IMG/VR virus record: IMGVR_UViG_3300014613_004232
Span: 1-64,000 of that record
Source: a virus
DNA: 64,000 nucleotides
Reading direction: 5' to 3' (one strand)
Under the pieces are notes generated by a model. That model made no database searches. It was not told where the DNA came from and saw only the letters and a list, made by a program, of their open reading frames with translations. The position numbers were made by a program, and so were the translations under genes. Shown here one piece after another: positions 19,204 to 56,248 of this stretch. Within the stretch, counting starts at the first letter, position 1, and each line of letters opens with the position of its first letter.

Positions 19204-19332
19204 CCGCTCCGTTGCTGAAAAAGAGGCAACACGGGCTTGGTCGCCCGGAACAAGGCGCAGCAAGCCGCGCCATCATCCAGAAGGCAGCGGCTTTTTCACG
19301 TCCGTGAAGCTGCGTGCACACGCGCTCCGTTT

Positions 19333-19410
19333 TATGGTGGGCCGTGTGGGGAGGAGGAAACTCCTGCCGGCCCCTTGTCCGGTCGACCAACCCTGCACGG
19401 TCTGCCGCCC
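19333..19410 (+). ncRNA. c4: C4-type antisense RNA (P1/P7 ImmI-like)
   Basis: Long closing stem, AGGAG-GAAA-CTCCT hairpin, and loops CCTTGT (19373-78) and CGACCAA (19384-90). These are complementary to ACAAGG/TTGGTCG sites upstream (19237-55) and downstream (19416-55, over the SD). Confidence 0.88.
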
Positions 19411-19462
19411 TTCGCTTGGTCGCGAGGTGCGGCGGGTTTCGACACCGCCACAAGGAGCCACC

Positions 19463-36400: not shown

Positions 36401-36411
36401 GAAAGCCCACC

Positions 36412-38482: not shown

Positions 38483-41400
38483 CAGCCGTTCACCTTCTCG
38501 TCAAGGTTGGCCCAGTAGGTGATGGCGTCCTGAGCCAGTTGCTCGACTTCACCGGTCAGCAGACCCGCATCGTTCAGGGCGTTCACGCAGGCCTCGATGG
38601 TCGCCAGGGTCAGGGACAGGTGGGCGGAATCGCTCTCCCCGGCCAGGATCGAGCGCAGTACGGCCACATTGCCGTCCTCGACCGCTGGGGTGGGCTCCGG
38701 CGCGGGCCCGGGTGTCGGCTCCAGCAACCACTTGACCAGGTACTCCGGATCGGAGCCGCGCGGCGCCGGGGCGCCGTTGGGGTCCTTGACGCGCTCACCG
38801 CCCAGGTCACCGACGTAGATGATGGCCTTGCCGTCGCCGGCGATTGTCGCCACGCCGGCCTGCACGCCGTCTTTGAAGATTCGCCCCACGGCGGCCAGCT
38901 TGGCGCCGGTCTCCAGCCGGTCGAGCGCTGCCGTCGCACCGCCCACCCCCTCCTCGGGGACTGAGTCGACCGAGTCGAACGCGGCGACTTCTTCCACATC
39001 CCAGGAGACGGATGCGCCGCGCGCCTTGGCGGCTTCGTCGATGGCCTTGGCCGTCGCGAACATGCTGTAGTCCGGATCGGCGACCGTCTCGGCGATGTAC
39101 TGCTTGAAGCGATCGGTCGCCTGGCCGAAGCGGTAGGCCTCGTCCACCTTCTGGGCAGGCGTGAGCTCGCCGGCGGTCTCGGCGACCTCTTCCTGGTCGG
39201 CCAGGTCATCGACTTCCTGACCGTCCGCGCCCATGACCTTGAGCACGTAGAAGTTCAGCACTTCAACGCCGGCCAGGACCCCAGCATCGTCCAGGGCCAC
39301 CTCGTGTTTGACGGCGGATCCGTCCTGTGCCACACTTTGGCCGTCTCCAGCCGATTCGTCGGCGGAGTCCAAGGCCGGATCGGTCGGGCTTTCTCCCGAC
39401 TTAACGATCCGGCTTTGTTTTTTGGCGAGCAAGGCGGACGGCGAATCGGACAGGTTGTACATGAAGCGGCCGTGCTCCATCTCGGCCAGGCTGACACCCA
39501 CTTCCACCGACAGCCCGCCTACGCTCACCCAACCCACCAGGTGGTGGAAGGCGCTGGCGCTGTCAGGGCGTGTTTTGTCGGTGGACTCCGTCCCGACGTG
39601 GTACCCCTTGCGCAGCAGATTCGGGATTGCAGCCAGCAACTTGACCCGCAACAGGTTGTAGGTCAGACCGCGCTTGACCTTGCCCCAGGACACACTGCCG
39701 TTGACCTTGATGTCGCCGATTGAGGTGTGCTTGTAGGTGTTGCCCTGCAATTCGCTGCGGAAATACTCTCGCGCGGCGTCGAAGACCTGCTTGTGCGCCG
39801 GGATCGGCTCGCCATCGTCATCGGTGGGGCGAATGCGGGAAAGCACCTCGGTACCGTCCAGTGTGGCGAGGACGGTGGTGGGCACGCCAGCCAGGGGGTT
39901 GTTCGGGTCGGGCAAGGCCGAGACAGGCTGCACCTCGGTGGCTTCACCCACCACTTCGCCCGGAACAACGATCGGATCTGGCTTGGATGCCTCGGCGTTC
40001 TCCTTGCGTTCGGTCCAGCCGGCGATCCACTGCTGAGCCTCTTCTTCGCTGAGCCCGGCCGGGGGGATCTCCGACTCTCCCCGATGCCATGCCTTCTGGC
40101 CTTGCGTGAAGGGGTCGAACTTGGAGCGCGCCAGAGTCATCGCCTCGGGGCCCACGATTCCCTCGACCAGCATGCCGAGGTCAAGCGCCTCGCGCGTCGA
40201 GAGGTCGAACTCAGCCATCATCTTCGCGCGGCGGTCGGAATAGGCGGCGTAGCCCTCGCTCGTCAGCACCTGGGCCAGTTCCTGGGCCATGGATTGAGGG
40301 TTCTTCTCACCCTCGGACGCGGCCGGGACAACAGGGGCGATGATGGCCGGCACCGCGGCGCCAGGTCCGAAGACTTCGTGGAGTTTCCGGGGGTAGACGA
40401 TCGGGTACTTCGAGCCCCCGTCCGACACACGGAAGCCAGCCGCAGCCCCGAGAGACGCCCGAATGGCGTTTCGAGAAACCCCCATGTAGTCCACGAGGAA
40501 CTGACCTACGGCGGACTGATCCACGTAGGCGTGCTGAGGCTGCAGTCCGAAGAGGTCGCGCAACTCAACATCGGTCGGTTGCACGCCCTGTTTCAGCTTC
40601 TCGGCCACGGCCTTCGCAAGCGCATCGCGCTGCAGGGCAAGCTCGGCGCCATCGGCTGCTTGCTTCAGGAATAGCGCCAACGAGGCGGCGGCCTCATCGA
40701 TCGAATCGGCCAGATTGCCCTGGTTGCCCTGCGCCCTCGCGATCCACTTGCCTGAACCCAGGGAACCTTTGCCAGGCAAGATTTCGGTGTCAGCCGGCAG
40801 CCCGTGCTTATCGATCGCAGCGCTCATCTCGGCGGCGTTCGCGTCCGCACCAGATTGAGGGGGGACAGGGGTGATCTCGCCATCGCCCTTGGCGATCCGG
40901 GCCACCTCAACGTCGTCCTTGAGTTTCGCGAGCTCGGCCTCCAGGACTGGGATCTCGGCGTCGATCGCGGCATGCTGGGCGGCCAGGTCGGCCGCGCGGG
41001 CGTTCGCGCGCTTGAAGGCCTCGGAGTTCTTGTCGGCCAACTTCATCACGCGGCGGGCCACCTCGCGGGCGGGGATGTCGCGGCCACGCTCAGGGGCGGC
41101 CCAGATGGTGATGTCCTTCTTGTTGAGCATCCACTTCCAGGACACCAGTTCGTCCATGGGGGTGAGCTTGGCGGGCGTGGTGTCGGGGTTGTGGAACCAC
41201 ACGGTGACCGCCTGGCCGTCGTTCATGGCGAAGACCACGGCAATCTGCATGGTGCCCCGCATCTTCACGGGGTCGGCGATGGTGAAGTCCACAGGCTGCA
41301 CGACCGCGGCCGAGGCCTTCATGACGTTGAGCAACTGCTCCATCTTGCGCTGCAGCATGCCGACCTCGACCACCATGGCATCCATGACTGCGCGGCCCTC

Positions 41401-42356: not shown

Positions 42357-44807
42357 CTACAGCCTGTTGTCCCGGGCGACATATCCAACCGGTGCCGCCG
42401 TCACGTTTTGACTTATCGGCATGGCAATGCCCGGAAACTTGCAATCGACAATCGCGAGGGCAGAGACCCGGTACGGCGAGATTGCCGCAGCCCCCACGCC
42501 AACATGGTTGTCCGTGTTTGGCGCTGGCGTGAATGTCAGGTCAACCAACTTTGCCGTGTTGTTGGCCACCTCGATGTTCCCTAGGCCGACCACGGTGGCG
42601 TTGCCGAGACCGACCAATTCGCCAGTCAACTTTCGCAGTCCGAACGACGAATCCCCGTAGACGCGCCGGATGTAGTAGTAGCCGTCAAGCGTGCCGGTGC
42701 TCAGCACGTTGTTGTAGATGCGGACAATCTGCCCCGCCTTCCAGTTGCCGTGCGCAACCTGAAACACCGAGTTCTCTGATCCGGAGATGGCAGCGATGTT
42801 TCGGGGGTGTAGGGAGTTTCCGTTGACGGGGAACGAGACACCCGATACGCCAGGCGGAATGTTTTCGATTGCCCCGGTAACAAGGGTGTCGGCTGAGTTT
42901 GAAAGCATCACGGGAGACATGCTTGCGTTGAACTCAGGCCCGCACACCATCCTGCAAGCAATCGTGTTCCCCTTCGACAACTGAATTGCCGAGTCGTTTG
43001 AAACAAGTCCCCCTCCGGCAGGCACCAGCGGGAAGTAGCTTCGCAGCGTGATGCCCTCGCTGTCGGAGATCCAGAAGGAACGAAAGCGCGTTGCGGCTCC
43101 CGTTGTATCGTTGATCCTGATGTGACCGGTGATTTCAGCGCTCTTCCCAGCCACCGATTTGACGCCGTATGCGTTCACGCCGTCATGCTGCATGAATAGC
43201 TGCAAGGTGCAGCCGGCACCAGACCCACCGGTGGGCGAATTCGGGGTTGCAGGCAATACGCTGTACTCGCCTTCGTCCAGCCGGCGAACCGCTTGGACAG
43301 CCCCATTGGCGTCTACCTGGGTCACGAGAAACTTCGCTTGACGCACGTATGTGCCACCAGCCGGGTTGATCTCGTCGCCAACGGCGTAGCCGACTCCAGA
43401 TCCGACAGCGACGAGGAGGCCGGTTGTCCACGGGTTGTAGCCCGTCGTGTTCAGTGGAGCGCTATCGCGATATGCAATGTCGCTAAGCTGGAACGTGTTG
43501 GCCGTCAGGTTCGCAGGCATGACCTGATAGAACCCGTTGAGTGCGTTCATGCCACCGATCGCAGGAATCAGGTGCACGACCTTGCCGGCAGTCAGCCCGT
43601 GATTGTTCAGCGTGACCACGGCAGCGGCGGCCTGGGTAACAGCAGTCGGGCTGCCAACAATGACACCGGACACAGCATCCCAGACTGCATTGCCCGCAGT
43701 GCCGACTTCAAGGTCAGCGTGGATGCGAATAGCTCGAAGATCGTCTGGGTTGCGGAAGCCAGCAGCTGCATGAGAGAAGATCGACACACCACCGTTTCTA
43801 AGCAAGCCAGACTTGCCGGACACCTGCACGTCGACGTTCTGCACGCGCCCGGTCTTGGTGTAGTTTTCCGGTGCGCCTGAGAACGCTTTTGTGACCGGCG
43901 TGTAGACCTTGATCGCAGCGCCACGCGCGGAAACGCAAGTGATGTTGCGGGCAATGAAGTAATCAAGCCCCTGGTCGTCCATGTACAGAGCTGACCGAAC
44001 GCGGTCGTCACCGGCCGCAAGCGCGTCGTCTCCCGCCTCGATGTACCAGTTGTCCCAAACGCAGCCACCGTACTGCCAGTGGGCTCCGTCCTGGTACAAG
44101 CCGGCCTGGCCAAGGATCCGGCCGTTGAGCATGCGAGCGTAGCCGCCGCCGCGCGTGGCCCAGTTTCGCGACCACTGCGATGTGATCAGCGTCAGGCCGT
44201 CAGCCACGAAGTTGCGGACGTTGTAAAGATCCAGGACGGCAAGCGTGTCCTGGTTGTTGGCGTCCAGAACCCCGTTGCGCACAGTGATATTGTCGGCATT
44301 GCCGTACCAGGTGTTGCCAGTCTTCTTGAGCTCAGCACACAGGATTGAGCCGCGCGCTGTGAGCGCGCCAGCCCCGCTATAGTCGGCATTGCGGATCTTT
44401 TTCAGCGTGGAGCCGTTTAGATCAATGTCAATGTTTGAACGGACAAATAGGCCATCAACTAAGTACGTACCGTTGACTGGAAGCACAACCTTCAACTGAC
44501 GCTTTGCTACCCTCGCAGAAGCCGACATATCGTCGATGAACTCTTGCAGGATCGCCGTATCGTTTCCTCCGGACTCTGCGGGCCCCATATACGGGCCATA
44601 GTTGTTCCCTCCGACGCCTGGCTGGTTGGGCCGGAAGTCCTCCATGATGACCAATGGCGTTGCGCGGATCAAGCGCCCATCTTCATCGATGTAGTCCGTT
44701 TTCGATCCGGCCGTCTGAGACTGGAGCGTGCGATCGCCGATGATCACAACCGGGACTGCTGTGATTTCCTGTCCATCGACGTCGACATATTGAATGAGGC
44801 TGCTCAT
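42357..44807 (-). CDS. Tailspike/depolymerase (pectate-lyase-like beta-helix with FCCH-like inserted domains)
   Basis: NDTAILQEFID...GTYLV beta-helix cap; DGAH..IEAGDDALA; VVTL.NHGL.AG..V...GGM..LNG.Y domain; lower GC. Confidence 0.8.
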   Translation of the reverse strand: MSSLIQYVDVDGQEITAVPVVIIGDRTLQSQTAGSKTDYIDEDGRLIRATPLVIMEDFRPNQPGVGGNNYGPYMGPAESGGNDTAILQEFIDDMSASARVAKRQLKVVLPVNGTYLVDGLFVRSNIDIDLNGSTLKKIRNADYSGAGALTARGSILCAELKKTGNTWYGNADNITVRNGVLDANNQDTLAVLDLYNVRNFVADGLTLITSQWSRNWATRGGGYARMLNGRILGQAGLYQDGAHWQYGGCVWDNWYIEAGDDALAAGDDRVRSALYMDDQGLDYFIARNITCVSARGAAIKVYTPVTKAFSGAPENYTKTGRVQNVDVQVSGKSGLLRNGGVSIFSHAAAGFRNPDDLRAIRIHADLEVGTAGNAVWDAVSGVIVGSPTAVTQAAAAVVTLNNHGLTAGKVVHLIPAIGGMNALNGFYQVMPANLTANTFQLSDIAYRDSAPLNTTGYNPWTTGLLVAVGSGVGYAVGDEINPAGGTYVRQAKFLVTQVDANGAVQAVRRLDEGEYSVLPATPNSPTGGSGAGCTLQLFMQHDGVNAYGVKSVAGKSAEITGHIRINDTTGAATRFRSFWISDSEGITLRSYFPLVPAGGGLVSNDSAIQLSKGNTIACRMVCGPEFNASMSPVMLSNSADTLVTGAIENIPPGVSGVSFPVNGNSLHPRNIAAISGSENSVFQVAHGNWKAGQIVRIYNNVLSTGTLDGYYYIRRVYGDSSFGLRKLTGELVGLGNATVVGLGNIEVANNTAKLVDLTFTPAPNTDNHVGVGAAAISPYRVSALAIVDCKFPGIAMPISQNVTAAPVGYVARDNRL

Positions 44808-44872: not shown

Positions 44873-44885
44873 GAAATCATCAACC

Positions 44886-47411: not shown

Positions 47412-48509
47412 TCAAGTCTTGATGACGCCAGCGAAGGCGGTCGAGCGGCCTCGGGTTTCAGTGGCGATCCGCGGTGCACCGTACCCACCGAGTTCACCCA
47501 CCCAGGGGGTGTAGATCTCCCAGCCATGGCCATTGCCATTGGTGGTGGTGTCGCTGACGTCGCCTTCCGAAGGCCCGTTTTTGAAACCATGGCTGTGACC
47601 CTGGAACGCGTCCTGCAGCCAGGCGCCAAAACTCTGACCGGGAAGCACCCCGCGGAGGTCATCCCAGAACCGGATGTGCTCGCCTCGAACATCTGCGGAA
47701 GCGAACGTACCGTCGCCGTTGTCCTTGTAGAACAAGGTGCCGGCGGTCCAGCCGCTGGAGAGCATCAAGCCGTGATGCTTCGCCCAGTGGTAGAGCGCCA
47801 AGGTGTTCGGCAGGCCAGTCACGCCGGTCTTGATCCAGGCGTTACGCGGGGTGGGCTGGGTGTCAGGCCTGAGCCAGCCGATGTCGACAGAGGCGTACCC
47901 GATGTAGTTCGCCCCGTTCGCCGTGAAGGACTGCCAAGTCATCAGGGAGTTGAAAGCCGCTGACCAGATGGGCCCCTCGTCAACGGTAGGCAGCGCCGCG
48001 GCTGCGCCGAAGTGCCGGATGTACTGGACGTGCGGGTGGGGGTTGCTCAAGTGCTGGGCCATGATGGCCAGCGCCAGCGCGCCACCCGGATCAACCTCGA
48101 TGGTCACCGACCCGGCTGGCACCCGGGTGACCTTCATCGCGAACTGACCCACCCAATCGATGGTGTTGCGCTGGAAGATGGTGGTGCCCGGCGCCGAGTG
48201 GACCGCAAAGAGCACCCCGCCTGCATCCGGGTCGCCGGCATAAAAACCGATCTCGCCCACGTTGTAGGGGGCGCCAGCGTATGACGGCAAGTATGCGGAG
48301 ACCAGGAAGCCGCCTGAGCCAGTGGAAACTGAACCAGAGATGGCCACCTTCTCCTTGCGAAGCACCAGCGCCACCGCATTGTCGGCCGGGGCGTACTGCC
48401 CCTGTCCGAGAACGATGTGGGTGATCTTGAGCTGGATGCCGTCGGCGTCAGCATTCACCGCCGCAGCGAGACCGGCGTCGGTGATCTTGGGGGAGATGAC
48501 GGTTGGCAT
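47412..48509 (-). CDS. Tail fibre protein (baseplate-attached N-terminus, collar domain)
   Basis: ITDAGLAAA...EIGFY...LFAV N-terminus; PHPHVQY; DVRGEHIRFWD...Q.DAFQGHSH...ETRGRS.AF collar/tip motifs. Confidence 0.85.
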   Translation of the reverse strand: MPTVISPKITDAGLAAAVNADADGIQLKITHIVLGQGQYAPADNAVALVLRKEKVAISGSVSTGSGGFLVSAYLPSYAGAPYNVGEIGFYAGDPDAGGVLFAVHSAPGTTIFQRNTIDWVGQFAMKVTRVPAGSVTIEVDPGGALALAIMAQHLSNPHPHVQYIRHFGAAAALPTVDEGPIWSAAFNSLMTWQSFTANGANYIGYASVDIGWLRPDTQPTPRNAWIKTGVTGLPNTLALYHWAKHHGLMLSSGWTAGTLFYKDNGDGTFASADVRGEHIRFWDDLRGVLPGQSFGAWLQDAFQGHSHGFKNGPSEGDVSDTTTNGNGHGWEIYTPWVGELGGYGAPRIATETRGRSTAFAGVIKT

Positions 48510-48542
48510 GTCAGGGTCGTTCCGGGGCTTGAAAACACCCGA

Positions 48543-48583
48543 AGCATTCACGTCACGCCAGCCTGGTCGGCCGCCCGTTTTCC
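48543..48583 (-). promoter_or_regulatory. Late-promoter motif (tail fibre operon)
   Basis: GGAAAA-N29-AATGCT. Confidence 0.75.
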
Positions 48584-48585
48584 GT

Positions 48586-49059
48586 TTACACGGTGAAGGC
48601 GGAGATCTCCTCCATGAAGGCCAGGGCCCCATTGACAGTTCGCTGACGGCTCGCAGCAAGGCAGGCGAACATGACGGCGACCTGGGCGCAGGTGATGTCC
48701 GGGGAGATCCGGTACCGGACGCCGCCCTCGTCGACGCCGTCGCGCTCGATCTTGTTCGATGGGTTGTGGCGCGCCGCCTTCTCACTCAACGCGAGCAACT
48801 TGAGCCCGTCCATCTCGAAGAATGCCCGAATGGCCGCCTGCAGGTCATCGTCGGACACCAGGTCATCTCGGTGCGTGTCACGCTCCTGGTTGCTGATCTT
48901 CAAGAGCTCGGGCGCTTCGCCCGGGTCGTAGGTCTTGCTGTCTTGCACCAGCAGCAGGTCCTCCTCATGGTCGAAGGCCCCGTACAAGGACACAGGCTCT
49001 CCGCTGAAGCCCGCGATGTTGACGCGAAGCAGGACGGTCGAATCCTTCTCGTCAATCAT
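48586..49059 (-). CDS. Hypothetical morphogenesis protein
   Basis: ATGA-coupled within the structural operon. Confidence 0.55.
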   Translation of the reverse strand: MIDEKDSTVLLRVNIAGFSGEPVSLYGAFDHEEDLLLVQDSKTYDPGEAPELLKISNQERDTHRDDLVSDDDLQAAIRAFFEMDGLKLLALSEKAARHNPSNKIERDGVDEGGVRYRISPDITCAQVAVMFACLAASRQRTVNGALAFMEEISAFTV

Positions 49060-50692: not shown

Positions 50693-51319
50693 TTAGACGA
50701 AGTTCGTGGTGAAGGTTTGGATGGCCGCGCCGGTGTAGAAGCCGCATGCCAGGCCGAGTTCGGCCTCGCTGCGCTGCTCCAGGGTGATGCTCAGGACGAT
50801 TCGCGCGGGCACCACGGATCGCAGCGCCGGCGCCACGGCGTCGACATCGGCGCCAGATGTCACCCCCGAGGAGATGACGACGTTGACCCGGCTGGTCAGG
50901 AAGTGGTTGCCACCGTCGGAGAGGACCAAGTCCACCGGATAGGTCCCGCCCTTGAGGCACCACAACTGGTCGACGCGCCAGCCCTCCGGCCACAACAGCC
51001 GAAGGTAAAGGCGCAGCATGTGCAAGCCACGCTTGGGGTTGCGCGCCTTCCAGGCCCTGAAAAGGAAGCGCATGGTTTCCTCGTCGCCGCGGCGGACCAG
51101 GGCCAAGCCCTCGTTCTTCACTGCGCGCTCGAACTGCTCCAGGGAACCCAGTTGCGGCATGCCGATCGTCTTGATCTCCCGCTCGGCCGGGCGGATGAAG
51201 GTCTCCACCAGGTGCACGAACAAGCCCTTGAGCTCGGACTCCATGATGTCCGCCTCGTGGGACTCGCGCAGCGGCGTGAGGTCCGGCTCGGGCTGGGGGA
51301 TCAGCGGGAAGTCGGCCAT
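50693..51319 (-). CDS. Baseplate wedge protein (gpI-like, P1 gp16-like)
   Basis: WKARNPKRGLH.LR.YLR.LWP...V.PAR..L motifs; follows J-like gene. Confidence 0.7.
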   Translation of the reverse strand: MADFPLIPQPEPDLTPLRESHEADIMESELKGLFVHLVETFIRPAEREIKTIGMPQLGSLEQFERAVKNEGLALVRRGDEETMRFLFRAWKARNPKRGLHMLRLYLRLLWPEGWRVDQLWCLKGGTYPVDLVLSDGGNHFLTSRVNVVISSGVTSGADVDAVAPALRSVVPARIVLSITLEQRSEAELGLACGFYTGAAIQTFTTNFV

Positions 51320-52749
51320 CAGTAGCTCCACAGGGAGTTGCCGAACTTCGCGCTCTTGACGTCAACCGTGAGGCTCGCCCCGGTCACGTGCAGGTACTGC
51401 TCGGGCAGAAGCGTCACTGGGATAGTCACGGTGGCCTTGAAGTCTGCCGATGCGTCCTGGAGCGCTGGCACCTTCGCCTCCAGGAGCTTGTTGAGGTCCT
51501 GGTTGGGAACGGGATTGCGCATGCCCCGCGAGACCGCCTTGGCCCCATCTCCGTACTCGCCCAGCACGGCGGTGGTGATCTGGGCCTCCACGGCGGCGAT
51601 GTCGTGCACCACGGACACGCTCGCGTCCACCGTGACAGGGATCGGCGTCAGGACAGTCGGCACGAACCGGACCCTGTAGGAGTCGTCCGCCCGCTTGACC
51701 AGTTCGCGGACTCGGGCCTCGAACTGGGCATTGCTCATCCCATCGACCAGGCCAGAGACGAACAAGGTGTTGATGTTGTCGACGTTGGCGCCCCGCACGC
51801 TCTCCTCGATCTGCTCGTTCCAGACGCTCAGGAATCGAGGAGTGAGGTAGCGACGCAGTAGCGCATCGAACTCGGCCAGGAACACCGCGTTGTGGTCGTA
51901 GATCGCGGGGTAGCGCGCCATCACCCGCAGATCCGCCATGGATGGGGGGTTGGCACCGGTGTCTTCCACCGAGGTCAGGGAGGCCTTCACCAGTCCATCC
52001 CCGGGCGTCAGGATGTACTGCAGAGTGAAGGTGTCGCCTGCGCTCAGGTCGCTGATCTCGCCCTCGCATTCGGTCATGCGCAACTCGAAGACGTCGCCGG
52101 CGGTCACGCTGAAGCCCACGCGCGTCGAGTCACCCATCCGGACCCACAGTCGACGTAGCTCGTCGGTTTCCAGGGTGTAGGCGAGTTGGCCAGCCGTGAT
52201 GTTGAAGAACTCGGGCGAGTAGGTGAACTCCACCCCGCTCTTCCAGACGCTGAGCATGGTGAGGTGAGAGGAATCGCTCACCGGCACCTGGATCTCGTAG
52301 AACGGCTGGGCGATCTGCACCTGGTGCGTCACGGTCCGGGTGCTCTTCTGGGTGAGGGCGACCGAGCCGGTCTGGCCCGCGGGGATGGTCACCGAGGCGT
52401 CCGCCTGGTACAGGCGCCCCTTGTTGTCCATGAGCAGGCGCCCGGCGATGACCGTGAAGGCGGAGGGGCCGTCGTTCTTGAGGGCGATCGTGCCGCGCCA
52501 CGGGCGCGCGAGCGGCAGGATGCCCTTGAGCGCCGCGTCGGCCAGCACCGTCGAGTCCAGGGTCTTCGTGAACGCCTCGAACCGCCCAACCTCGGAGTGC
52601 TGGGCCAGCAAGAAGGACATCTCCACCTGCGCGCCGATCTGCGCCAGCACGCGAGGGTCGCCAGCCTGGGCGGCCAGGGCGATGGACGGGAACTGGGACA
52701 GCGCATTGAGCGCTGCCTGTCGGATCTGATCCTTGGTCGGTGCGCTCAC
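51319..52749 (-). CDS. Baseplate J-like protein (P1 BplA-like)
   Basis: STVLADAALKGILP; ETDELRRL.VR.GD...G; J-like size and position. Confidence 0.8.
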   Translation of the reverse strand: MSAPTKDQIRQAALNALSQFPSIALAAQAGDPRVLAQIGAQVEMSFLLAQHSEVGRFEAFTKTLDSTVLADAALKGILPLARPWRGTIALKNDGPSAFTVIAGRLLMDNKGRLYQADASVTIPAGQTGSVALTQKSTRTVTHQVQIAQPFYEIQVPVSDSSHLTMLSVWKSGVEFTYSPEFFNITAGQLAYTLETDELRRLWVRMGDSTRVGFSVTAGDVFELRMTECEGEISDLSAGDTFTLQYILTPGDGLVKASLTSVEDTGANPPSMADLRVMARYPAIYDHNAVFLAEFDALLRRYLTPRFLSVWNEQIEESVRGANVDNINTLFVSGLVDGMSNAQFEARVRELVKRADDSYRVRFVPTVLTPIPVTVDASVSVVHDIAAVEAQITTAVLGEYGDGAKAVSRGMRNPVPNQDLNKLLEAKVPALQDASADFKATVTIPVTLLPEQYLHVTGASLTVDVKSAKFGNSLWSY

Positions 52750-53039
52750 AGGGCCTCCACGTCGATGCTTTGGCCCAGGACGTCGATGCGGATGACCTTG
52801 CGGTCGAAGTCAGCATCCACCGCGCTCACGCTCACGGTCCCAGCAGGCGCCACCGACAGAATCGGGATGTCCATCCGCATCTTGGCGATGAGGTCATCGG
52901 CCGCAGGAGAAGACATCGGCTGCATCAGCATCGACTTGACGTCCGAGCCATAGTCGGACCCAAGGTAGCCATTGGGTGGGCACCCAAGGTGGTGGGTGAC
53001 CATCCCTTGCAGGTCTTGGGGGGTGAGGGTCTGAGCCAT
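52746..53039 (-). CDS. Baseplate wedge gp25/gpW-like protein
   Basis: H.L..P.NGYLGSDYGS...K.R.DIP.L motif. Confidence 0.75.
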   Translation of the reverse strand: MAQTLTPQDLQGMVTHHLGCPPNGYLGSDYGSDVKSMLMQPMSSPAADDLIAKMRMDIPILSVAPAGTVSVSAVDADFDRKVIRIDVLGQSIDVEAL

Positions 53040-53046
53040 GGCGGCG

Positions 53047-53087
53047 ATTTGGCCTCTTGGCACGCCACGGTGCGGCGGTCACTTTCC
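53047..53087 (-). promoter_or_regulatory. Late-promoter motif, probably giving a leaderless mRNA
   Basis: GGAAAG-N29-CCAAAT; ATG follows only 7 nt after the hexamer. Confidence 0.7.
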
Positions 53088-53091
53088 AGAA

Positions 53092-53282
53092 AGGCGAAAG
53101 CCCCCGAATGAAGAACCGACATCCGGGGGCCCTCTTGCTCCATGAGACTAGACGCCACCACCTCTCGGCGGCTTTCGGCGCCCTGGAGCCTGCTCTACAC
53201 CTGTTCAGACCTGGGGGCACAGTGGTACGACTGTGCCGGCACTTCACCCTGCCGGCAGACCCTGAACTGGCCTTGCTTGGGT
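53092..53282 (-). ncRNA. Unannotated structured late ncRNA (~190 nt) with own promoter and terminator
   Basis: Promoter motif at 53289-53329; several helices with G-U pairs and a GAGA tetraloop on the minus strand; terminator at 53092-53130. Confidence 0.65.
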
Positions 53283-53288
53283 GAGGCC

Positions 53289-53329
53289 AGTTTCATCGGG
53301 CTCAGGCGCCCGGCCCTGGCACGCTTTCC
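53289..53329 (-). promoter_or_regulatory. Late-promoter motif driving the ncRNA
   Basis: GGAAAG-N29-GAAACT. Confidence 0.7.
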
Positions 53330-53670
53330 GAATCCACCGCCGATGGAGGAATCAGGGCAGAGGGCTGGCAGTGCCAAACCTGGATCGTCTCCACTACGGC
53401 GCCTCCCTCTTGCGGGTGGATCTCGACGCCCTGGACGTACATCCCGGTCGCATCGATCTTGAGCACCTGGACGTCAAAGATTGGCTGAAAGACGTTGGGC
53501 TTGACCTGCCCGTAGAAATCTGCCTTCAACTCTGCCTGGAGCCGAACGCGCCCTTTCTCGTCACCCGGCAGGCGATCAAAGATGGACAGGTCGCCCTCTT
53601 GTGGCGGCTGAAGTTCAGATCGCTTGAGGCGGCGGCCCTGATCTCGTAGGCGGGTGACTTGGCAACGCAT
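53302..53670 (-). CDS. Hypothetical protein
   Basis: ATG ORF with protein-like composition downstream of tRNA-Arg. Confidence 0.55.
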   Translation of the reverse strand: MRCQVTRLRDQGRRLKRSELQPPQEGDLSIFDRLPGDEKGRVRLQAELKADFYGQVKPNVFQPIFDVQVLKIDATGMYVQGVEIHPQEGGAVVETIQVWHCQPSALIPPSAVDSESVPGPGA

Positions 53671-53704: not shown

Positions 53705-53780
53705 TGGCGCGCCGGAGAGGACTCGAACCCCCAACCCTGGGCATAGGAAACCCCTGCTCTTTCCGTTGAGCTACCGGCGC
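53705..53780 (-). tRNA. tRNA-Arg (anticodon CCT)
   Basis: Full cloverleaf: GCGCCGG/CCGGCGC acceptor, loop TTCCTAT, TTCGAGT T-loop, encoded CCA. Confidence 0.92.
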
Positions 53781-55291: not shown

Positions 55292-55793
55292 GGTGGCTCC
55301 AAGGTTGTGCGATGTCGGAAGAGTTCGAGGACGCCGAGACAATGCAGGGTGAAACAAAGATCCAGAACCCGCGAACGGGCTCAAGCGTGCGTGCCACAAC
55401 CTGAGAATCAATGCAGGGTGTCTGGCGCCCTCGGGTCTGCATTCGCCTGGGTGCTCCTGGCTCGGGCTCTTGCCCTGGTGTTCCCTGACTAGAGAGAATG
55501 CAGACCCGAAGGCCCTGGCGAACTGCGCCAGGAATCAGGGCAGGCCTTCCACCTGCTCGGCATGGCTCGGGGGTTCCGCTGCAGCAGGATCCCATCACGG
55601 ACTCACACCGCTATGCCGGGCACTTCAACGCTGCATCCCGGTCAGGCCCCAGCGCGGGCTTTCTACGCTCAGTCGTCGAAAGCACACGGCATGCGCTTTC
55701 GGCGACTGGCGCCGGAGACAAGAGCCCGGTGGGCCGCCTCGTTGCGCACCGACCGAGGATCGCGCAACCGTTCAATCTCACCTCGGTTGATGC

Positions 55794-55868
55794 TGGAGCG
55801 GGCTGGGGGAATCGAACCCGCCATGAGTGGCTTGGAAGGCCACGGCCTGACCATTCGGCCAAGCCCGC
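55794..55868 (-). tRNA. tRNA-Gly (anticodon TCC)
   Basis: GCGGGCT/AGCCCGC acceptor, U73, GTGGC-CTTCCAA-GCCAC arm, CCA. Confidence 0.92.
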
Positions 55869-55875
55869 ATGAATG

Positions 55876-55952
55876 TGGTTGCGGTGTCTGGATTCGAACC
55901 AGAGACCTTCGGGGTATGAACCCGACGCGCTACCAGGCTGCGCCACACCGCC
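55876..55952 (-). tRNA. Initiator tRNA-fMet (anticodon CAT)
   Basis: 1:72 mismatch (G:A); TCGGG-TTCATAC-CCCGA arm with three consecutive G-C pairs; CCA. Confidence 0.9.
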
Positions 55953-56232: not shown

Positions 56233-56248
56233 GAAATAGACCGCGCCT

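Follow-up and report, generated by a model that had tools for sequence, protein, structure and literature searches.

In an uncultured P1-like provirus, a promoter-to-terminator unit that contains no protein gene is the probable source of a folded RNA some 190 nt long. The unit occupies the gap between a small gene, ORF122, and the baseplate/tail-fibre operon. The reading that we favour, and to which we give an even chance, is a stand-alone accessory ("moron"-type) sRNA gene, the 3'-most member of a tRNA/ncRNA island, acting via its structure; the unit is best filed as a new unclassified phage-encoded sRNA moron. A preliminary description of this locus had proposed such an RNA and offered several roles for it. 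We compared its claims with promoter scoring, fold statistics, family models and the DNA of related phages, and most of them held, with exceptions in one domain, in the terminator and in one of the proposed functions.

Genomic setting

The provirus (93.8 kb, IMG/VR) has about 64% GC, and nearly all of its genes lie on the minus strand. The window, i.e., the whole 64-kb stretch of DNA that was analysed, is its first part. The baseplate protein of the provirus is distant kin of the versions found in Xanthomonas phage Rb1 and in the P1-like Escherichia phage D6. The landmarks needed below are as follows.

19330-19412, C4 antisense RNA (P1/P7-type immunity), an Rfam match above the gathering threshold
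51319-52749, minus strand, phrog_1369 baseplate gene, next in the baseplate/tail-fibre operon
52746-53039, minus strand, phrog_4683 gene of 97 aa that opens this operon (PHROGs match; ATG at 53039)
53302-53670, minus strand, ORF122, a small all-beta protein with a basic N-terminus (homologues of 64-82% identity)
53705-53780, tRNA-Arg-CCU
55794-55868, tRNA-Gly-UCC
55876-55952, tRNA-Met-CAU

The candidate RNA sits within a gap of 262 nt, with ORF122 upstream and the phrog_4683 gene downstream; intergenic gaps in this genome are mostly shorter than 130 nt.

A family of late-type promoters and its copy upstream of the RNA

When the motif [CT]GGAAA followed by NANNNT was counted at each spacing, 11 minus-strand occurrences fell at exactly 30 nt, against 0-3 at each of the other spacings from 20 to 39 nt and none on the plus strand at 30 nt. 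With the rest of the provirus included, the family comprises 17 copies. Scores were obtained with a position weight matrix (PWM) from which the copy under test was omitted (leave-one-out), applied to both strands of the 93.8 kb. Two copies flank the candidate RNA.

53289-53336, minus strand, late-type promoter P1 with the box GGATTCGGAAAG (spacing histogram and leave-one-out PWM)
53039-53088, minus strand, P2, late-type promoter of the baseplate operon (PWM score of 14.6-18.6 bits; conserved layout)

P1 has CGGAAA as its box core (53330-53325, context GATTCGGAAAGC), and 30 nt of spacer separate this core from GAAACT, the -10-like hexamer at 53294-53289. P1 scores 24.2 bits and ranks tenth in the provirus, with only training sites above it; other family copies reach 22-30 bits, and the best non-site on either strand stays at about 10-11 bits. 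The full copy of the late promoter announced in the preliminary description is thus real, in both score and spacing. P1 shares with the family the box, the spacer and the hexamer on the gene strand, and departs from it in having no coding start within about 50 nt. In 15 of the 17 copies a coding start, belonging to a long ORF with high GC3, follows the hexamer by 4-51 nt (this count includes the copy at 66011 and the one at 44873, the latter with its ORF start at 44807). Only P1 and the copy at 56233 deviate, and both are located in the tRNA island. Because no coding start follows the P1 hexamer at this distance, the product of P1 is expected to be non-coding.

The timing implied by the word "late" is inferred from the genes served, i.e., from the position of the motif before virion genes. 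The motif is also found ahead of methyltransferase and DNA-modification genes: the copy at 66011 (66011-65913, minus strand, beyond the window) precedes a DNA cytosine methyltransferase with the motifs FGSVCSGIE and GGTPCQAFS and a TTG start, so the motif is not confined to virion genes. Another copy (48584-48509, minus strand) lies inside the long tail-fibre-like ORF 47412-48785, with an in-frame ATG 33 nt past the hexamer; either that gene really begins at 48509 or it also yields a shorter isoform.

ORF122 and the possible conservation of P1

The P1 box coincides with the codons (D)SES of ORF122, and the ORF122 stop codon (53304-53302) lies inside the P1 spacer. ORF122 is a real gene and encodes a conserved protein of no known family: its homologues form four clusters, about a dozen relatives are known, and all come from ENA or Logan assemblies. 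Searches of PHROGs and Pfam gave no match, the predicted structure (pLDDT 65) had no significant match in the PDB, and the Atlas matches provided weak tail/baseplate-like leads only. Scans of IMG/VR and the JGI metagenomes with ORF122 returned one relative, 38% identical, in a different context and with no RNA.

Among the homologues the core is conserved and the C-terminal tail is highly variable. Within this tail the dipeptide ES is invariant in all ten family sequences that have a tail, always with the stop codon 6-7 codons further on; in the window the ES codons, TCG GAA AGC, form the CGGAAAG box. Given an invariant dipeptide in a variable tail at a constant distance from the stop, the simplest reading is a constraint at the DNA level, which indirectly suggests that P1 is conserved in the relatives that carry ORF122 and that the variable part of the tail is an unconstrained spacer. 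Alternatively, a constraint on the protein could account for the invariance of ES.

Coding potential and fold of the candidate RNA

The predicted RNA and its parts are listed next.

53092-53282, minus strand, predicted RNA of about 190 nt (fold stability, no Rfam match, no coding signal)
53203-53267, minus strand, domain 1, an irregular hairpin of some length with GUUCAG/CUGAAC as its closing stem (mean pair probability 0.88)
53137-53189, minus strand, domain 2 (pair probability 0.98)
53089-53134, minus strand, terminator-like hairpin (53134-53096) followed by the tail UUUCGCCUUUC (about -28 kcal/mol)

The 5' end is placed near A53282, as suggested by the hexamer-to-start distance at other promoters (7 nt), and the 3' end would fall at about 53092-53089, judging from the hairpin and the U-rich tail. 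A hairpin further upstream, ACUGGCCU/AGGCCAGU, overlaps the -10 hexamer of P1 and the start site, so it would form only on read-through transcripts from ORF122.

ORFs in the gap, on either strand, have no match in PHROGs or Pfam, and a search of 5.8 billion proteins found no homologue of the longest antisense ORF; the earlier statement that the transcript has no credible ORF stands. The one frame that deserves mention starts at AUG 53122 and runs out of frame into the phrog_4683 gene. A Shine-Dalgarno-like AAGAGGG is placed at a good distance, 8 nt upstream of this AUG; against translation, the AUG lies within the 15-bp terminal hairpin, the overlap with the next gene would exceed 110 nt, and the frame itself has no PHROG or Pfam match. 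We regard a small protein as a very improbable product of this unit.

The Rfam 15 search of the window at gathering thresholds found only the C4 RNA and the three tRNAs, leaving the candidate RNA unmatched, in agreement with the initial failure to place it in a known family. With permissive filters the best sub-threshold match was DUF3800-VII, at 20 bits versus a threshold of 36.2, with only the terminal hairpin aligned.

The RNA (53282-53092) has a minimum free energy (MFE) of -92.8 kcal/mol, with z = -3.3 compared to dinucleotide shuffles. For the full stretch taken in the preliminary description, the minus strand has z = -3.5 and the plus strand z = -1.4, and G.U pairs make up 12 of the 65 MFE pairs; the strand preference that had been proposed from G.U pairs and the GNRA loop is supported in silico. 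After regression of MFE on GC content, the RNA is the most stable of the 1,596 minus-strand windows of 191 nt, and the region of the true C4 RNA comes fourth.

It should be noted that stable folds arise easily in a genome with 64% GC. Coding-region windows at 39560 and 2360 are almost as stable after the GC correction, and this similarity, together with the absence of the element from all relatives with DNA, favours the view that the gap is a functionless, GC-rich spacer, a remnant of the insertion of an ORF122/tRNA cassette upstream of P2, in which the fold is due to chance and P1 is inconsequential. The fold is nevertheless top-ranked and strand-specific, the genome is tightly packed, and a full-strength promoter whose box codons are conserved is unlikely to persist while serving nothing. 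On these grounds a functionless spacer appears unlikely.

All sequence elements quoted in the preliminary description are present on the minus strand. Domain 2 has exactly the fold that was given there: GCUCCA/UGGAGC around GGCGCC/GGCGUC, a GAAA bulge, and GCCGCC-GAGA-GGUGGU with its GNRA loop; the 3' internal loop is UAGUCUCA. For domain 1 the quoted stems exist and their proposed arrangement as a three-way junction is disfavoured: a single irregular hairpin has a predicted -31.2 kcal/mol, compared to -13.8 and -20.4 kcal/mol for the junction models, which are thus 11-17 kcal/mol worse. The local hairpins GCCGGCA/UGCCGGC and GGCACAGU/ACUGUGCC overlap each other and are alternatives to the long hairpin.

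The terminal hairpin and promoter P2

The terminal hairpin has 15 bp (core GCCCCCGGAUG/CAUUCGGGGGC), a 9-nt loop and a pair probability of 1.0. Its tail UUUCGCCUUUC is an interrupted U tract, with 4 U in the first 8 bases, and continues straight into the P2 box, which begins 8 nt after the end of the hairpin. The stem is GC-rich, as expected of an intrinsic terminator; the loop is longer than the expected 3-8 nt, and the 8 nt after the stem hold fewer than the expected five U. A consensus terminator scan did not report the site, owing to the loop and the interrupted U tract. Of the earlier claim that the transcript ends at a terminator, the strong hairpin is just as described, whereas its agreement with the terminator consensus fails; the terminator is non-canonical, and with such a loop and tail termination may be partial. 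The same layout, a terminator and then a promoter box, occurs at two other operon boundaries, 14879 and 17837, there with cleaner U tracts.

P2 is composed of TGGAAA (53088-53083), 30 nt of spacer, CCAAAT (53052-53047), 7 nt and the ATG at 53039. It is the weakest copy of the family, and its hexamer CCAAAT lacks the A at position 2. The same hexamer occurs in the promoter at 36401, where a normal gene start lies 25 nt downstream; P2 is therefore probably functional. A box, a spacer of 29-30 nt, a hexamer, 5-7 nt and an ATG precede the phrog_4683 homologue in at least 13 relatives (loci L001, L002/L004/L022/L034, L006, L012, L013/L014/L020, L023, L027, L030, L035, L036 and phage Rb1, accession PQ569993), for instance at about 820-875 in L001, 3650-3705 in L004 and 3160-3210 in L033. 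The baseplate proteins of the P2-bearing relatives are 34-57% identical to that of the window. The short distance between hexamer and ATG implies a leaderless mRNA for the phrog_4683 gene. This phylogenetic footprint shows P2 to be the ancestral promoter of the baseplate operon and supports the promoter model, in which 29-30 nt separate a CGGAAA box from a -10-like hexamer and the ATG that follows is leaderless. The architecture spans metagenomic P1-like proviruses and the cultured Xanthomonas phage Rb1, which offers a handle for mapping the late regulon in this group. With a conserved promoter of its own right past the hairpin, the baseplate operon can be separated from the RNA unit, and the independence claimed for that unit gains in silico support.

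The tRNA island as a possible transcription unit

The copy of the promoter at 56233 is a full late-type one, and a 240-nt leader without an ORF leads from it into tRNA-Met and tRNA-Gly (56233-55953, minus strand). Since this promoter leads into the tRNAs, the whole 3.2-kb island, with its three tRNAs, small ORFs and structured segments, looks like a single predicted late transcription unit, the 3' limit of which is the hairpin of the candidate RNA; the consensus terminator scan found no other terminator-like site inside the island.

A second very stable structure without an ORF lies at 55400-55560 (minus strand, z = -4.9), between tRNA-Gly and the next ORF. It consists of a short hairpin followed by a 17-bp stem, CCUUCGGGUCUGCAUUC/GAAUGCAGACCCGAGGG, and has no late promoter of its own. 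The 14-nt repeat CTGCCCTGATTCCT is found at 53360-53347 and at 55543-55530, the latter being the start of this structure; we set it aside as evidence because a 14-nt repeat is expected by chance in a window of this size.

The layout of the island raises the possibility that the region is a 3'-UTR and insulator with a leaky attenuator and makes no functional RNA: it would stabilise and end the island transcript from 56233, and read-through from P1 across the imperfect terminator would add baseplate mRNA bearing a Shine-Dalgarno sequence (AAGAGG, 13 nt before the ATG), supplementing a weak P2. The low score of P2 agrees with this scheme, as do its CCAAAT hexamer (NANNNT in all relatives), the poor U tract, the lack of any other terminator-like site in the island, and a layout like that of lambda PR'-6S-tR' and StxS (PMC7547250). 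Conversely, CCAAAT precedes a normal gene start at 36401, so P2 probably works, and its leaderless layout has been kept exactly. Moreover, the ensemble contains no anti-terminator fold, the pair probability of the terminator being 1.0, and the hairpin alone would suffice for an insulator, which leaves two further stable domains (0.88-0.98) unexplained. We consider an insulator, the main rival, rather unlikely, and the accessory sRNA gene remains the reading that we prefer.

Distribution in relatives

At the P2 junction of all of the at least 13 P2-bearing relatives, both the RNA and ORF122 are absent. All relatives that were compared have a tight gene junction here. The gap in Rb1 is 56 nt; L004 carries different cargo. 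Comparison of the region with 46 related loci (blastn and nhmmer) gave no homologue at this locus; blastn against phage and plasmid collections gave tRNA matches only, or none; and two core motifs, sought as exact patterns in IMG/VR, gave no homologue. A covariance model built from the single sequence (R1) and run on all loci and on the whole records of five relatives had a best non-self match with an E value of 0.3. Four complete relatives (85-100 kb) that share the virion module have neither the RNA, according to model R1, nor ORF122.

The relatives with DNA that come closest have baseplate proteins 54-57% identical to that of the window, and lack the RNA element; in IMG/VR, GTDB genomes and JGI metagenomes no relative exceeds 57% identity of the baseplate protein. 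Closer kin are seen at the protein level, with homologues of the 97-aa phrog_4683 protein at 74-88% identity and of ORF122 at 64-82%. Judging from these loci, the RNA unit is cargo specific to its lineage and forms the 3' end of the tRNA/ncRNA island. Because relatives that do not have the RNA keep P2, the RNA is neither a required leader nor a core component of the virion. The idea of a packaging or structural virion RNA, one of the roles raised in the preliminary description, is disfavoured for the same reason: the virion genes are shared with relatives from which the RNA is missing.

The slot directly upstream of P2 holds other cargo in relatives. In L004 (3100-3600) it contains a tRNA-like gene on the opposite strand, together with a 131-aa ORF that seems to have a signal peptide, and in L003 (3770-3925) an AT-rich small ORF. 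Accessory genes seem to have a hotspot at this junction.

Proposed mode of action

In the scheme that we favour, transcription would start from P1, within the last codons of ORF122, near 53282; the transcript would fold into two stable hairpin domains and end at the hairpin 53134-53096, which may also terminate the upstream island transcript and insulate P2. The layout resembles that of MicL, whose promoter lies in the coding sequence upstream and whose terminator is shared with that gene, so the same RNA might also be released by processing of the long island transcript. The RNA is nearly all paired, and the phage offered no convincing antisense target: complementary stretches in the 94-kb provirus do not exceed 13 nt, which is the chance level, and when the RNA was paired by RNAduplex with the 5' ends predicted for 16 late mRNAs, it performed no better than shuffles (overall p of about 0.3). 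These results lead us to expect action in trans by structure, i.e., protein binding or a decoy role, rather than seed pairing.

A broader proposal is that the RNA founds a new class of structured RNAs that are expressed late, bind proteins and travel as cargo of phage tRNA islands. It would be inherited together with ORF122 and act as a decoy or cofactor (e.g., to counter a nuclease that targets RNA, or a host defence), as a small counterpart of GOLLD and ROOL. We hold this to be doubtful.

Comparison with known systems

The pRNA of phage phi29, a structured packaging RNA, has about 170 nt, is linked to the production of virions and is a core component conserved among phi29-like phages. In contrast to this core and conserved RNA, the candidate is missing from complete relatives whose virion genes are the same, and it has no Rfam match. 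The C4 antisense RNA of P1/P7 (RF01695), which is regulatory, is likewise a small structured RNA of a P1-like phage; it differs from the candidate in locus and fold, its model does not match the candidate, and it acts in lysogeny and immunity, not late.

Type-I 3'-UTR sRNAs, such as MicL in cutC and DapZ (PMC4102768; review PMC9438474), share three features with the candidate: (i) a promoter within the 3'-terminal part of the preceding coding sequence, as P1 lies in ORF122; (ii) a shared terminator; and (iii) the absence of an ORF. They are Hfq-dependent, seed-pairing RNAs of enterobacterial chromosomes, whereas the candidate is phage-borne and nearly all paired, has a weak U tail and yielded no target in the phage.

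Lambda PR'-6S RNA-tR' and StxS of Stx phages provide a terminated late-promoter transcript of about 190 nt upstream of late structural genes, and StxS demonstrates that such a short late RNA can be regulatory (PMC7547250). The candidate resembles them as a short terminated transcript of about 190 nt, as predicted here, directly upstream of structural genes. An important distinction is that the late genes of lambda need Q-mediated read-through of the terminator, whereas the baseplate operon has its own conserved P2; therefore, the defining feature of the 6S/StxS system, downstream late genes that lack a promoter and depend on read-through, fails here. In addition, P1 is one of 17 promoters of an activator type, whereas the lambda-type promoter is constitutive.

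GOLLD and ROOL are structured phage/prophage RNAs of unknown function, often found beside tRNA islands, and GOLLD rises during lysis (10.1101/2024.12.08.627333). The candidate is similarly structured, phage-borne and near a tRNA island. GOLLD and ROOL have 500-800 nt or more and Rfam models, neither of which matches the candidate, whereas the candidate has about 190 nt and a simple fold of three hairpins. Phage and prophage tRNA islands repeatedly carry structured RNAs such as these two, and the candidate, if true, would add a compact example, some 190 nt long and with a clearly defined promoter and end, that is easy to clone and to test.
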